Part shown: positions 5,680-30,641 of the stretch, piece by piece
Position numbering within the stretch: position 1 is the stretch's first letter
Layout: each line of letters starts with the position of its first letter
Source of the DNA: a virus
Virus record (IMG/VR): IMGVR_UViG_3300031992_000044
Length of the DNA stretch: 64,000 bases
Direction: 5' to 3' (one strand)
Notes under the pieces: model-generated
Seen by the model: the letters and a program-made list of their open reading frames with translations, nothing else
What the model was told of the DNA's origin: nothing
Database searches by the model: none
Program-made: the position numbers and the translations under genes

Positions 5680-7795
5680 TTTTTTTCTTATCCTTTTTGA
5701 TATCGTTATTGATTAACTAACGATAAGAATTAATATTTCCTCCACTTATGGCGGGAGGGTAACCTTTGAGTTTGAAAATGTGGCGTTCTGGCTCAAAGGC
5801 TCTACGAACGTTTATCTTTAGATCTTTTAATGTTAATATCTTTATGCGTGCTCACGAGAGCAATCTTTTTTCATCCAATAGGATCTTCCAGCTAGATAAA
5901 TTACGTAGCACGAACACTATTTCATTTATCGGGGACTCAGCGATAGAGTCAGCCATGCCCATCATTAGAAGATTGTTGTATTTTCTGTAAAAGTACAAAA
6001 AGTGATATATTGTAACCAAACATAAGATCCATTGAGATTATGTTAATAAATAATTTACATGCACTGAATGTTTTCAACACTATTCGTTGGCAGCATTTCA
6101 CAAGGACTACTGTTCGTAGAATATGCTTACTAAACCCAGCGGCATTTAACCAACAAAAATTGTGTAATTCTTCCTAGCGTATTTTCCCGTTTTGCTTGGA
6201 ATCCTTACCATGTTTCTGAATATTTAACGAGACTAACAGCAACATTAACGTTCTCGTCCACGCTCAGCATAAGGCATCTCATGCGTAGACATGTTTTATT
6301 ATCGGAATGGTCTAGAGCTCCAGAACTCATTATGGACCTACGGTTTTTTGTTGTACATTCAGCTTTACTGCTGTCTTCTGTTTATAGTGCGCGAATACTG
6401 GAGGAATTCCACCTCATACGCTATAAGATTTATCACCCACCTAAAGATTCACTTTGTCGAACTCTCCTTCAATTTCCTCAAAAGGTATGGATCTCCGGTT
6501 TGCTTTACCCCTCCGAGACAGGGAGGTGATTTCATTTCACGATAGGCTGCCTTACATCGTTTACGTATATTGACTTTATACTTTCTACCCACATAGATTT
6601 GCTGTCTATGCTTCGCTTCGTTGCGTATTCTGTCTACTTGCTTCTCAGGAACGGTTGGCACTCGATTTCTTGGCGTGAAAGCACCCACAAGCGTTACAAA
6701 CGGGGTCTTTATCTTCTCCCAGCCAAGGGACATCTATTAGATTTAACAATATATTTAATGTAACGATATTTTCATAAGCCTTATCTTAGAATCAAGTTAT
6801 GCCGCACATAAGTTTACTACTCTCACTGATATAGTATAACAGGTTCAGGTCTTATTATCTTTTGCATTACACGAGCGATCTCCTTCTGTACTGGATGTAC
6901 AGTTCTCGAATCGACCCTATCTCACTATAAAATAACTTGGGTTTGACTGTCAGGTTGTCATCCTTCGACTCCAGCATTTCCTCTGGTACATCTCCAATCT
7001 ATATTACTTAACTATCGCTTATCATAGTCTTTCATACCTTTTGAATAGTCTTTCACCCCGGACTTCACTCGGGTAGCATTCAGTCCTCTAGGACTATACT
7101 CCGCATTATGTGGCGCATCCACATGTGGTCATTTACTTTTAGCACGAATCAATTCCACGTGTCTTATACCGCTTGAACGACCAAAGCCTGGCGGTCACCT
7201 TCATCATATTTTTCTCAGTACCCCATCCCCGGCACCCCTTCAACGGAGTCGTGCTGAATCGAACAGCAAGGACTTCTCCAAGGAACGTAGTTACGGTACG
7301 TCGCAGACAGTTAAACCTTCTGCTAGGCTCATATACTCCAGTAGTTTTCATCCCTTCATACACGCTGTGGAGGCGTGGAACACTAGACTACAGCTTAATT
7401 TGTGATACATCCGTATACTCTTTGGATTAGTATACGCTGCAACTCGTGTAACGTGATTCTAGGTCTATGTAATCTCTCGAAACCTAGATCTATCGATACG
7501 GTTCGTTTTGCGCTTCTTGCGACTTATGTGTCTTCTCTTGACTACCCTCACCAGACGGTTCTCAGGGACCAGAATAGGGTTGATACAACGCTCTCCCTAA
7601 TATCCACAAGCTTTTCACACTTGCGATCTTCCATCCTACCTTTTGAGTTTCTCACCCGTTGAGCGGGCTAACATATTCTCGGATCAAGTAAATTTGCGTA
7701 CACGGCTAATGAGACCGTTGCCTTAGCTGTACTGACGTGCTGCCAAACTGGCTGGGGGATACAGGCAGTGTCCCATATCCCCCGCACCGGAGTGA
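5680..7795. ncRNA. ORF-free, hairpin-dense block (2.1 kb); candidate structured noncoding RNA(s)
   Basis: Only short scattered ORFs in all six frames. In the parts I checked (6961-7140 for TAA and TGA; 7061-7800 for TAA only) no minus-sense frame stays open for long. Two sampled 120-nt windows (7181-7300, 7541-7660) are 53% and 47% GC by my count. Many perfect hairpins, for example CGTATAC..GTATACG at 7411-7437. Shares motifs with the other ORF-free blocks. Confidence 0.35.
7245..7268 (-). other. Isolated tRNA T-arm-like module inside the ORF-free block
   Basis: Minus-sense TGCTG-TTCGATT-CAGCA (7252-7268) followed by CGACTCC. GGAG occurs just 5' of the arm. No canonical D or anticodon arms found. 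Confidence 0.3.
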
Positions 7796-13912: not shown

Positions 13913-15163
13913 TCAATTCGATAATAAATCTGTTTGATTCTCTGCTAATATAATATACCTTGCACCACTCTTATCTGGATCAAGACTTGCATATGGATTT
14001 TTCCAATATAGATTCAGATGATATGTATAACCTCTCTAAAGTTTTACGTTTTGTGTAGGAGCAGCTGCATACATATTCTGAGACCCACTGATTGCAGTTT
14101 TTGATCTTGAATATTCCCTTGTATAAAGAAATATTGGATAACCATATGCATTATTGATAGAATTCATTAAATACCAAGTGCCATCAGTAAAATCAGTAGT
14201 AGGCATATATATACCAGTAATCGTTGTTATTTCTGGTGAGGTATAAGATCCGCCAACTGGTATAATTATATTATTTTTGTGATAATCCCCATTTTGATCA
14301 GGTATACCTATATTGGCATCAACTATATTAGCGTACGCTTGTGTTGAATTTGTCCAATCGTTTTGATTTCTTGATAAATTTAAAGTTACTCTTCCTGAAA
14401 GTCTTGCTTCAGAACCAGTATTATTTGTTATGACAAATTTAATTCCATTGCCTCCTGTATATTCAGCTGTACTGTATACTGTAGTTTCAGGTGCATGATC
14501 ATCTCCAGATGGTGTAGGAGTTGGATCAGGATCTGTGTCATATGTAGGTGTTTGTCCTCCACCCATCCACTCTGTAGTATTATTTGGTATTGTTACAGTA
14601 AATGATCCTCCATCTTGAAATATATAACTTTCACTTACTCCAGATGTTGTGAAAGTATAATTGCTTCCATTTATTTTATATCCACAATTACATAAATAAG
14701 ATGTTTCAGAATACTGTTCTCCTGATGCAAAATGTAATCCTTCGTATTCTCTTTCAAATATTACAGTACATTGTGCAGATAAACCTTGTTCTATTCTATT
14801 ATTTGTTGTTACTGTTCCTGTCACAGATTGTATTTGCTGATTATCCTCATCCCACAATAATAACTGCAATTGGCGGATGTTTAATCTACCACCAGCATTA
14901 TTCACAATCATTGCTGTCATAGTTATACCGTCTTCTGGTGTAGGAGTTGGTGTTGGTTCTGGATCGTCAGGAATAATAGGATCTGGTGTAGGTGGTATAA
15001 ATGAATCTATATTACCTATCTGTATTACAAGCCCTTCTTCTGGAATTTCCTCAGTATCAGTACCGCTAGCGTGTATTATCTACACCTAATCGCTGGTTAT
15101 CTTCAGAATACTTGGCTGATCGATAACGTCATCTTTATTTGTAAAATCGTATTTGTTTAACAT
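13913..15163 (-). CDS. Hypothetical fibre/carbohydrate-binding-like protein, 3 in-frame TAG (416 aa)
   Basis: Track ORF 14036..14920 extends upstream in frame to the ATG at 15163 through TAG-GTG-TAG (15080-15088). Downstream it reads through TAG 14036-14038 to TGA 13913-13915, which sits 1 nt before the next gene's ATG. Contains a Pro/Thr linker PDPTPTPS. Confidence 0.65.
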
Positions 15164-15189
15164 GTTAATTTAGATTTGATTGTATTTGT

Positions 15190-15259
15190 AGCGAGTGTGG
15201 GACTCGAACCCACCAGTTTACAGATTTACTGAAACTTACCGACTGCGAACAGACTCGCT
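15190..15259 (-). tRNA. tRNA-like gene with a non-canonical central region (possible pseudogene)
   Basis: Perfect acceptor AGCGAGT/ACTCGCT and T arm GTGGG-TTCGAGT-CCCAC. No standard D stem. The anticodon region folds as AGTTT-(12-nt loop CAGTAAATCTGT)-AAACT. Confidence 0.4.
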
Positions 15260-16044
15260 CCACCCACTTAGGTAGGGTTCACCGACTTCACGCTGCCTCC
15301 TTGAGACCCGTGTAGTCAACGATATTATAATCGCCGTTTAAATTTATATCAAAGCGTTTAATGTCTTACTTTCCACTGCTGTCAAATCCAGTCAGGCCCA
15401 TAATGCCCACATACGGCCTACGAGTGGGCTGCGCAGATAGTCACCCCTTATTCGCTCTATGTGACAGATAAAACTTGGGACTTGCCGTGGACCTGGAGGG
15501 ATTCGAACCCTCGTCCAACAGCTCATTCTGGGACACGCTAAGATTCTTGTGTAGAACGTTCTGATGATCGGTCAAAACATTCAATTTAAGGCTATTTTCA
15601 GGCTCTCTGAGACGTTTTCTAGGCTTTTGTGGGTAGCTATTCCACTCAAGCTTTAAAATGGCTTAGAAAGGCTTATTTTAGCCTTAAATAAAGGTTGAAT
15701 ACGTTGGTCTACCACTGGCTCGAAGGCTCACAATAGGGCGTATTCGCATTCTTGAAACTGTTTTACAGCAAAAGCTGACTCTATGGTTCAGTAAAACTCA
15801 TAGTTCTTGATCTAATGCCCACATATTATTACACCGTGTGGACGGTGGTATCACCCCGTGGCACTGGCTCAAAGGCTCGGACCTAGATTGCGAGTGTCGC
15901 TCCCTGTCGGACTGAATATAGTTAATATAAAGGCGAACTTCAGAAACTATATTATTACCGATCTTCTATAACGTATTCTGCTTTCTTTTTATAGAGTATT
16001 GGCTCAAAGGCTCGGACTCTACGGATGATGGGTGCTCTCAGAGA
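15260..16044. ncRNA. ORF-free structured block with internal repeats; candidate noncoding RNA(s)
   Basis: No ORF of 60 aa or more. TAATGCCCACATA occurs twice (15401-15413, 15813-15825), each followed 20-26 nt later by TCACCCC. TGGCTC(A/G)AAGGCTC occurs at 15716, 15865 and 16000, and also at 5789. Hairpin AAGGCT..AGCCTT is present. Confidence 0.35.
15489..15512 (-). other. Isolated tRNA T-arm-like module
   Basis: Minus-sense GAGGG-TTCGAAT-CCCTC followed by CAGGTCC-A. No matching GGACCTG 5' strand was found in 15521-16040. Confidence 0.3.
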
Positions 16045-16554
16045 TTACCAATCGTTGAGGTACCAACGATACTCAGCCTCGTAAGAGTTACGGAGTTCTT
16101 CCACACCCTTGCGATACTCTTCGTCGATTTCGCTCTCCTTCTTGCGCATCTCCTCGTTGAGCTTCTTGAGTTCACGCTTGTGTTCAACAGCCGTGAGGCG
16201 CTCCTTCTCGTCGATCTTGGTCTTAGTGGGCACCAGCTCACCGTCCTTGATCTCACACTTCACACCCAGGTAGCGCTCCAGGAGTGCATGGGTCTGCTCT
16301 AGACCATACTTCTCCAGCTTGTCCTCTGCCTTGCGCTTGCGCTTCATCAGGACCTTCTTGCGATTGTCGTAGGTGGCAACACAGATCTGAATCTTGGCCT
16401 CCTGCTTCTTCTTGTCGTCCTTACCCTTTTCGATGTCCTCCATAGCGGCGACAACAGCTTTGTCGGTCATCATGTTCGCGTTGCGCAGGCCGTCCTGCAC
16501 TTCTTCCTGCTCAGCAGCAGCTGCAGCAGCTTTTGTGTCTTTTTTCTCTGCCAT
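16045..16554 (-). CDS. Hypothetical charged coiled-coil-like protein (169 aa)
   Basis: ORF-track ORF with strongly GC3-biased codons, a TTATCAAAA-ATG leader and a TAA stop. Confidence 0.8.
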   Translation of the reverse strand: MAEKKDTKAAAAAAEQEEVQDGLRNANMMTDKAVVAAMEDIEKGKDDKKKQEAKIQICVATYDNRKKVLMKRKRKAEDKLEKYGLEQTHALLERYLGVKCEIKDGELVPTKTKIDEKERLTAVEHKRELKKLNEEMRKKESEIDEEYRKGVEELRNSYEAEYRWYLNDW

Positions 16555-30566: not shown

Positions 30567-30641
30567 TGCTCCATGGTGTAGCGGTAGCACGGGAGGCTCT
30601 AACCCTCCAGGTCCGGGTTCGACTCGATGGTGGGGCGACCA
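30567..30641 (+). tRNA. Amber suppressor tRNA (anticodon CUA), Gln-like, with encoded CCA
   Basis: Acceptor TGCTCCA/TGGGGCG (two G:U pairs), then A-CCA. D arm TG-GTGT-AGCGGTA-GCAC is identical in stem to the tRNA-Gln(UUG) of this window. Anticodon arm GGAGG-CTCTAAC-CCTCC. T loop TTCGACT is present, but I could not pair a clean 5-bp T stem by hand. Confidence 0.75.

Follow-up and report, generated by a model that had tools for sequence, protein, structure and literature searches.

We analysed a viral DNA stretch of 64,000 nucleotides (nt; IMG/VR record IMGVR_UViG_3300031992_000044, the whole of which is called the window here), in which the block 15189-16022 is best read, at a probability of roughly 0.8, as one composite non-coding RNA locus on the minus strand. 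It would comprise a circularly permuted transfer-messenger RNA (tmRNA) gene, a structured domain of ~450 nt on the 5' side and a tRNA-like element on the 3' side, and all of the features listed for the block are read on the minus strand (Table 1). The carrier is a crAss-like gut phage (Crassvirales, Suoliviridae/Oafivirinae). An earlier account of the window, drawn from its letters alone (the sequence-only reading), had called the block free of open reading frames (ORFs), and this holds: TAA, TGA and TAG stops are present in all six frames, so that reassignment of any single stop codon would still leave the block without coding capacity, and a hidden recoded gene is ruled out by the same stops. 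What that account had overlooked is that the T-arm it pointed out, the sequence between its two copies of TAATGCCCACATA and the region down to 15288 together form what we read as a circularly permuted tmRNA gene.

The tmRNA core and its relation to Bacteroidales ssrA

ARAGORN called a permuted tmRNA (tmRNA*) at 15197-15577 (-) with the tag GDYNIVDYTGLKEAA*, and the Rfam model RF04321 aligned to 15288-15536 over its full length (model positions 1-213) with 49.4 bits against a gathering score of 47. Judged from its sequence, the core is a circularly permuted ssrA, with acceptor piece, spacer and coding piece in that order. GGGCCUG (15399-15393) and CAGGUCC (15495-15489) form an acceptor stem of 7 bp with G3:U70, followed by A73, and the perfect T-arm already noticed at 15496-15512, with a loop of the GGUUCGA type, is the T-arm of the acceptor piece. 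G3:U70 and A73 are identity elements for AlaRS. CCA is not encoded in the window or in any parseable lineage.

BLAST against phage records returned the crAss-like phages cr273_1, cr272_1 and cr131_1 (Suoliviridae, Oafivirinae), for which RefSeq has “transfer-messenger RNA, SsrA” at the homologous place; the tmRNA core is thus already known from the annotation of relatives. Two scans of IMG/VR with tmRNA DNA patterns gave 52 further contigs, mostly of ~55-105 kb, representing ~17 distinct lineages (loci of relatives carry L numbers below). The upstream 169-aa protein, used as a query against IMG/VR, found no relatives. RF04321 scored 50-70 bits in 12 other lineages. Several lineages are overlooked by ARAGORN, among them Bohxovirus sp. 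'endotrachealis' (L080, PV686213.1 80072-80970), which has a complete tmRNA locus with an RF04321 score of 70.6 bits; its GenBank record has no tmRNA feature there, and hypothetical coding sequences overlap only the edges of the match.

The 7-bp acceptor stem, G3:U70 and A73 are kept in 24 of the 26 distinct versions, the acceptor stems of L041 and L076 not being parseable at the fixed offsets used. Acceptor pairs 4-7 covary (CCUG/CAGG, CUCG/CGGG, CGUG/CACG, CCAU/AUGG, GCUG/CAGC, CGAU/AUCG and GAUG/CAUC), with cognate strands pairing better than non-cognate ones (p about 1e-6), and P2 pairs likewise show compensatory changes. A further covarying interaction joins GYGUAUGAGGUA, just 5' of the T-arm, to GGAAGUAAAUAC in the coding piece (GUC/GAC in the window, GUCU/AGAC in L005 and GUAU/AUAC in most others). 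The tags are kept as peptides, ...N(I/V)VDYT(G/H/C/N)...(A/V)A with C-termini AA or VA, and end in TAA or TGA in 26/26 distinct versions, never in TAG. The spacer between the pieces ranges from 17 to 103 nt across lineages; the longest (103 nt, L059) has an inserted T-arm-like UCCAGAUUCGACUCCUGGA, possibly a complete tRNA-like unit.

These patterns bear on whether the tmRNA-like gene could be a non-functional captured fragment, or a decoy that titrates SmpB, as proposed for the molecule of mycobacteriophage DS6A that consists of the tRNA-like domain (TLD) only. Such TLD-only tmRNA mimics are known from phages, and the phage tag is unlike the host YALAA-type tag. We nevertheless hold this explanation to be highly improbable, given that 52 contigs from ~17 lineages have retained the full tag frame, its resume context, G3:U70 and A73, that changes in the acceptor stem and P2 are compensatory, and that the tag is kept at the peptide level.

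To place the permuted ssrA among cellular tmRNAs, a T-arm/acceptor pattern was scanned over one genome per prokaryotic species. It matched 20 loci, 20/20 of them in Bacteroidales (Bacteroides, Phocaeicola, Prevotella, Alloprevotella, Porphyromonadaceae and Azobacteroides) and zero in other taxa. At 18/20 loci ARAGORN found a standard one-piece tmRNA of ~395 nt; two gave no call and none was permuted. Tags of these Bacteroidales tmRNAs (GENNYALAA, GNENYALAA and similar) begin with Gly, as in the phage, and Prevotella tmRNA is all but identical to the phage gene of the window over the opening 22 nt of the coding piece and the closing ~31 nt of the acceptor piece. The lineage-specific Rfam models of permuted tmRNA (RF01849, RF01850 and RF01851) were not matched in the window; the best score, from beta_tmRNA, was 39.3 bits against a gathering score of 84, and this match was partial, covering the TLD only.

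Permuted tmRNAs are known from alpha, beta and cyanobacterial lineages, plus organelles (PMC11915505). A survey of phage tmRNAs counted 133 unique ones, 53 of them two-piece, and the phage two-piece tmRNAs described are almost all marine, matching alpha or cyanobacterial host lineages (PMC9004378). By sequence comparison, the permutation in the present phages appears separate from the alpha, beta and cyanobacterial ones and suggests that the phage lineage acquired an ssrA of the Bacteroidales type, which underwent permutation there. Tandem duplication followed by terminal deletion would yield the order post-tag pseudoknot domain, tRNA-like 3' half, spacer, and 5' half with pseudoknot (PK) 1 and tag; the order in the window agrees with this expectation.

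Table 1 Features of the candidate composite RNA locus and a related hairpin elsewhere in the window.
Feature	Position	Strand	Description
tRNA-like minihelix	15189-15259	-	7-bp acceptor stem AGCGAGU/ACUCGCU, T-arm, non-canonical 39-nt middle
tmRNA coding piece	15263-15399	-	GGGCCUG 15393-15399, P2 5' strands, tag frame, post-tag hairpin
Post-tag hairpin CCC-UACCUAAGU-GGG	15263-15277	-	Within coding piece
Tag frame GGC...UGA	15288-15335	-	Encodes GDYNIVDYTGLKEAA*, 15 codons, resume codon GGC
Spacer between tmRNA pieces	15400-15487	-	Putatively removed in processing; holds pseudoknot-like module 15406-15436
tmRNA acceptor piece core	15488-15536	-	P2 3' strands, T-arm 15496-15512, CAGGUCC 15489-15495, A73 15488
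CUGAUCA-loop hairpin	15554-15582	-	Just 5' of acceptor piece; CCGAUCA in window, CUGAUCA in relatives
Sequence-conserved stretch	15584-15685	-	A-tract/AGCC elements ~10-11 nt apart; from alignment
Conserved block AACGUCUCAGAGAGCCUGAAAAUAGCCUUAAAU	15584-15616	-	Single occurrence in window
Small hairpin GUGG-AAUAGCUAC-CCAC	15629-15645	-	Inside conserved stretch
Hairpin 4	15709-15736	-	Stem CUAUUGU/GUGGUAG; loop GAGCC-UUC-GAGCC 15717-15729
Module 3	15760-15797	-	Helix GUUUUAC/GUAAAAC around GAACC-AUA-GAGUC 15777-15789, plus small hairpin; by eye
H-type pseudoknot	15818-15847	-	Stem S1 CACCG/CGGUG; loop UCCACA pairs with UGUGGG 15818-15823
Hairpin 2	15860-15883	-	Loop GAGCC-UUU-GAGCC 15866-15878; 3-bp closing stem, 4-8 bp in relatives
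Hairpin 1	15991-16022	-	Stem GUAGAGU/ACUCUAU; loop GAGCC-UUU-GAGCC 16001-16013
Extra pentamer-repeat hairpin	5790-5802	-	Stem CGUUC/GAACG; 110 nt upstream of gene starting 5679

The tRNA-like element downstream of the coding piece

The sequence-only reading had placed a tRNA-like gene at about 15190-15259. An element is indeed present there, at 15189-15259, as a conserved acceptor/T-arm minihelix and not as a tRNA. Its acceptor stem pairs perfectly over 7 bp and is accompanied by a T-arm; where a tRNA would have D and anticodon arms, the middle folds into a hairpin whose loop has 5 nt. A true tRNA was rejected: ARAGORN made no call, RF00005 stayed below its gathering score, and the middle part measures 10 to 71 nt in relatives. 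The best tRNA-type match was tRNA-Sec at 21 bits (E=0.29), and no RF00005 match lay next to the tmRNA in 13 relatives.

A counterpart follows the post-tag hairpin in all ~18 lineages with enough downstream sequence, with 18 different acceptor stems. In a trimmed alignment of 12 pairs, 95.8% of cells were paired and 11/12 pairs had changes on both sides; the covariation score was 1.009 against 0.27 in shuffled data (0/500 shuffles as high), and a control that also fitted the partner strand gave p about 1e-9. The position is constant, between the post-tag hairpin and the next ORF, which begins within about 5-30 nt of the minihelix across lineages (at 15163 in the window, 26 nt downstream). L010 has a genuine tRNA-Met(CAU) at this site.

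RNase P and RNase Z require no more than an acceptor/T-arm minihelix as their substrate. From its conservation and place, the element is probably a “punctuation” signal for these enzymes and not a decoding tRNA; cleavage there would set the 3' end of the coding piece and free the downstream mRNA. Comparable mimics are the plant mitochondrial t-elements and the 3' ends of MALAT1 (mascRNA) and MEN-beta, in which cleavage of an acceptor/T-arm structure by RNase P/Z makes an RNA end. Like them, the phage minihelix is an acceptor/T-arm structure without a decoding role at the end of another RNA, its cleavage being putative here; it differs in its bacteriophage setting, in the adjoining ORF and in the real tRNA-Met of L010.

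Structured RNAs are also frequent elsewhere in the crAss-like relatives. Bohxovirus has a RAGATH-15 RNA (L003, PV686213.1 ~71.2-72.4 kb; 226 bits) with a tRNA-like element, given a 4-nt anticodon call, directly on its 3' side, which is likewise an arrangement of a large RNA followed by a tRNA-like element. RAGATH-12 occurs in Bohxovirus too, and a RAGATH-1 hammerhead ribozyme in another relative (L049 3605-3681).

The structured domain upstream of the acceptor piece

The region 15530-16050 is, by comparison among relatives, a conserved structured RNA. No Rfam family (ROOL, GOLLD, RAGATH and others) matched it at gathering score; permissive matches had a best E value of 2.2 and a top score of 18 bits, which is chance level and leaves the domain outside known families. 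From MAFFT alignments, RNAalifold retrieved no structure other than the CUGAUCA-loop hairpin (11 pairs, 10 with compensatory changes), and MAFFT put the pseudoknot out of register. Because unguided alignment and folding performed poorly, structures were tested by anchored per-sequence searches with shuffle and non-cognate-partner controls. The comparison revealed covarying hairpin stems, a covarying pseudoknot and the minihelix described above, and the repeats that had first drawn attention to the block are kept in related genomes.

Among these repeats, TGGCTC(A/G)AAGGCTC (TGGCTCRAAGGCTC) had been reported at 15716, 15865 and 16000 and once within 5680-7795. All four are there, the last at 5789, against 0.01 matches expected (0/100 shuffles reached 4), and a repeat finder agreed that two copies, at 15865 and 16000, continue identically, being the same over 18 nt. 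On the RNA strand the motif reads GAGCC-UUU-GAGCC, a direct repeat of a pentamer. An extra degenerate copy of the GGCTC motif, GAACCATAGAGTC at 15777-15789 (-), had been overlooked. Of the 18 lineages examined, 16 have four copies of GARYC-N2-4-GARYC upstream of the T-loop, at distances of ~490, 385, 305 and 213 nt; the window has them at -504, -369, -280 and -220.

The closing stems of hairpins 1, 2 and 4 vary in sequence by lineage yet stay complementary, and G:U pairs are tolerated. At hairpin 1, the cognate stems of 26 distinct relatives averaged 5.2 bp compared with 3.05 bp for mismatched flanks (p=2.6e-11), and cognate stems also differed from non-cognate ones at hairpin 2 (p=7.6e-4) and hairpin 4 (p=2.2e-6). 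The module 3 copy had no simple closing stem in relatives (cognate test p=0.68). The sequence-only reading had supposed tandemly related RNA modules or reiterated protein-binding sites. Of this, the modules stand, four in number, with covarying stems and a pseudoknot; the identical loops could be binding sites.

The loop motif changes as a set: L037, L041, L071 and L073 have GUAUC-N3-GUAUC (GTATC for GARYC) in all four copies, and L047 has GAGCC-UAA-GAGCC. No partner in cis (GGCUC or GAUAC types in the same RNA) tracks the switch from GARYC to GUAUC. Since eight identical pentamers change together in a genome, one trans-acting partner is indicated, and since no cis complement follows the switch, a protein would be the better guess, though a guess. 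From this pattern, the loop pentamers are probably docking sites for a co-evolving trans-acting factor. The layout of several hairpins sharing a loop motif is that of the sponge RNAs CsrB and RsmZ, which carry GGA in their loops; the phage motif differs in being a tandem pentamer (GARYC or GUAUC) and in belonging to an element linked to a tmRNA.

In the window the motif has nine copies on the minus strand and none on the plus strand, and in other loci the copies that lie beyond the domain share the strand of the tmRNA in 15/15 cases. Besides the hairpin at 5790-5802, a further copy probably lies at 1426-1438, so that the tmRNA is not the only place where the signal occurs. The hairpin at 5790-5802 ends, on the minus strand, a 2.1-kb block (5680-7795) that is non-coding in six frames under any single stop reassignment and has no Rfam match. 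Relatives have motif pairs ~10 kb downstream of the tmRNA, which may correspond to this block.

Strict orientation and a mostly intergenic position would also be expected if the pentamer hairpins acted as DNA, that is, as promoters, operators or iterons, for example hairpin promoters like those of phage N4. The joint switch of all copies in a genome from GARYC to GTATC fits one phage-encoded recognition protein, the tandem layout recalls the tandem early promoters of N4, and no promoter motif is known for the crAss-like early polymerase. However, extrusion from double-stranded DNA is very improbable for stems of 4-7 bp with ~17-nt loops, the tolerated G:U pairs are an RNA signature, and the segments between the hairpins covary as RNA (the pseudoknot in 21/21 relatives), so that the region is transcribed through. 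We consider a DNA-level role of the hairpins quite unlikely.

The H-type pseudoknot of the RNA domain, CACCG-UCCACA-CGGUG...UGUGGG, follows hairpin 2. It occurs at the homologous place in 21/21 relatives with ~12 different sequences of S1 and ~14 of the second stem (S2), and the per-sequence shuffle fractions were 0 to 0.2. This structure accounts for part of what had been taken for a ~410-nt duplication. The two copies of TAATGCCCACATA were found by the repeat finder at 15401-15413 and 15813-15825, and TCACCCC follows each (15441-15447 and 15851-15857), at gaps of 27 and 25 nt instead of the 20-26 nt first given. The second copy is the 3' strand of S2 with its flanks, and the first copy, with its TCACCCC, sits at the ends of a similar module in the spacer (15406-15436), which the closest relatives share; that this spacer module of the window forms a pseudoknot was judged by eye. 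The duplication itself did not hold up, as the repeat finder shows in common only the two ends (GGGGUGA ... UAUGUGGGCAUUA) of a pseudoknot module of ~50 nt, with no other repeat at that spacing. What remains is a pair of related pseudoknot modules of ~50 nt, of which one belongs to the 5' domain and the other to the spacer that parts the tmRNA pieces.

A kissing pair of GAUCA motifs (15807-15812 with the loop of 15554-15582) was considered and rejected, the joint loss in L038 and L048 being explained by genome-wide avoidance of GATC. Both have zero GATC in ~12 kb each, against ~35 expected, presumably as avoidance of restriction, and both conserved GAUCA motifs of the RNA domain are gone.

The stretch 15584-15685 could be single-stranded RNA or a promoter or regulatory element at the DNA level. 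Within it, the 6-nt palindrome in the loop of 15629-15645 changes yet stays palindromic, being UAGCUA in most lineages, UAAUUA in L037, L041, L071 and L073 and CAGCUG in L011, with L005 and L010 as exceptions; this could mean loop-loop self-pairing or a DNA palindrome. A scan for sigma-70 promoters and intrinsic terminators stayed at chance level and was uninformative. Both cr273_1 and cr131_1 have, ~1.5 kb downstream of the tmRNA, a phage gene that RefSeq names an ECF-type “RNA polymerase sigma-W factor” (L001 427-990 and L002 595-1149), which may bear on the promoters driving the tmRNA region.

If the stretch is a promoter, the tmRNA assignment could be right and the modules at ~15709-16022 nevertheless separate, either derived from the 3' untranslated region of the upstream 169-aa gene or an independent RNA of it, with 15584-15685 driving a short acceptor precursor. 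This arrangement has an appreciable minority chance. The stretch is kept by sequence, with elements phased at ~10-11 nt; short acceptor pieces are usual in known two-piece tmRNAs; and the ~25 nt between the upstream stop codon and the start of hairpin 1 would hardly accommodate a separate promoter. Opposed to this are the spacing of copy 4 to the T-loop, which is -207 to -221 nt in most lineages, the lack of any promoter consensus above chance, and the RNA-type covariation, G:U intermediates included, of the CUGAUCA-loop and GUGG hairpins in or near the stretch. Moreover, an origin by duplication and deletion predicts a pseudoknot domain at exactly this place. As the 5' domain occupies the position of PK2-PK4 after such an event and GYGUAUGAGGUA pairs with the coding piece, we favour, as an inference, the view that the ~450-nt domain extends the acceptor piece on its 5' side in place of PK2-PK4.

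Several points weigh against a single composite RNA. The RF04321 score of the window barely exceeds its threshold (49.4 vs 47). The closing stems are short (4-7 bp) around ~17-nt loops, and RNAalifold on the unguided alignment gave no consensus structure at the hairpin 4 region. The stretch 15584-15685 is conserved by sequence and not by covariation, and Bohxovirus has a second, partial copy of it upstream of an unrelated gene, so that it could be an internal promoter separating the modules from the tmRNA; the attachment of the 5' domain to the mature acceptor piece is itself inferred. The closest relatives, L005 and L010, have no hairpin 1 at the usual place, which shows the modules to be evolutionarily plastic. 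No SmpB or loop-binding protein was found among the five neighbouring ORFs checked, no systematic smpB search having been made, and Pfam and PHROGs gave no informative match for the five neighbouring proteins. Lastly, the locus is known here from sequence alone.

Proposed function and relation to known tmRNA systems

The composite locus can be given a course of processing and function from established tmRNA biology. RNase P would cut at G1 (15399), tRNA 3'-end enzymes and the CCA-adding enzyme would complete the acceptor end at A73 (15488), and the two pieces would remain base-paired. AlaRS would charge the tmRNA via G3:U70 and A73, and with host SmpB the phage tmRNA would rescue stalled ribosomes and add the phage-specific tag ...N(I/V)VDYT...(V/A)A. 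It may give extra or altered ribosome-rescue capacity in infection.

Stop codon usage in the phage may be connected with this. A suppressor tRNA with a CUA anticodon lies at 30567-30641 (+), labelled tRNA-Pyl by ARAGORN, and the ORF that starts at 15163 (-) and adjoins the tmRNA has in-frame TAG codons; together these indicate TAG reassignment over part of the genome. Were the suppressor to read through TAG stops of the host, non-stop ribosomes would become more numerous. A literature link between tmRNA and stop-codon recoding was searched for and none was found.

Known two-piece tmRNAs (Alphaproteobacteria, a betaproteobacterial lineage and Cyanobacteria; RF01849, RF01850 and RF01851, merged as RF04321) have the same gene order, a TLD made from two RNAs, G3:U70, and a tag frame after the 5' acceptor strand and P2. 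Unlike them, the phage form has a Bacteroidales-type TLD, a 5' domain of ~450 nt and a 3' minihelix, and it is carried by a gut crAss-like phage whose sampled host-clade genomes have one-piece tmRNA only. The one-piece tmRNA of Bacteroidales (~395 nt, tag GENNYALAA) shares with it near-identical 5' 22 nt and 3' ~31 nt, a Gly resume codon and the absence of an encoded CCA. It differs in that the phage form is permuted, that the phage tag is longer and different (…VDYT…EAA or …VA), and that the four-module domain either takes the place of PK2-PK4 or is their diverged descendant, sequence similarity between the two being undetectable. The mycobacteriophage Bxz1 group, Melnitz and the pelagimyophages also carry ssrA on a phage, the marine ones in two pieces; the crAss-like phages differ from these in having a host clade without a permuted form. 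In the searchable literature, no description of crAss-like tmRNA was found beyond automatic annotation, and the Bacteroidales-type permutation, the 5' pentamer-loop domain and the 3' tRNA-like element appear new to it.

A more far-reaching proposal, which we put forward as doubtful, is that the 5' domain is a tmRNA scaffold in which four hairpin/pseudoknot modules with eight identical pentamers recruit multiple copies of a co-evolving and probably phage-encoded factor, that rescue is reprogrammed, and that this is a fourth origin of the two-piece form. If so, crAss-like phages would, with a non-host tag, reprogram ribosome rescue beyond merely supplementing it, and could thereby handle non-stop ribosomes arising from amber suppression or divert tagged proteins from host proteases. 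The fourth origin would be independent and recent, with its likely precursor, the Bacteroidales one-piece tmRNA, still observable and the real tRNA at the 3' end in L010 as an intermediate state.

tmRNA is the main ribosome-rescue system of bacteria. Its two-piece form was previously known from three bacterial lineages, organelles and phages of those bacterial lineages; here, a phage family abundant in human and animal guts carries a permuted tmRNA with a TLD of the Bacteroidales type, which suggests that tmRNA was circularly permuted once more, this time inside a virus. Some records lack the element or annotate it wrongly. The 5' domain and the punctuation element could reveal how phages control the processing and the partners of a rescue RNA, and the locus could show whether ribosome rescue is tied to the reassignment of TAG stop codons in these phages.

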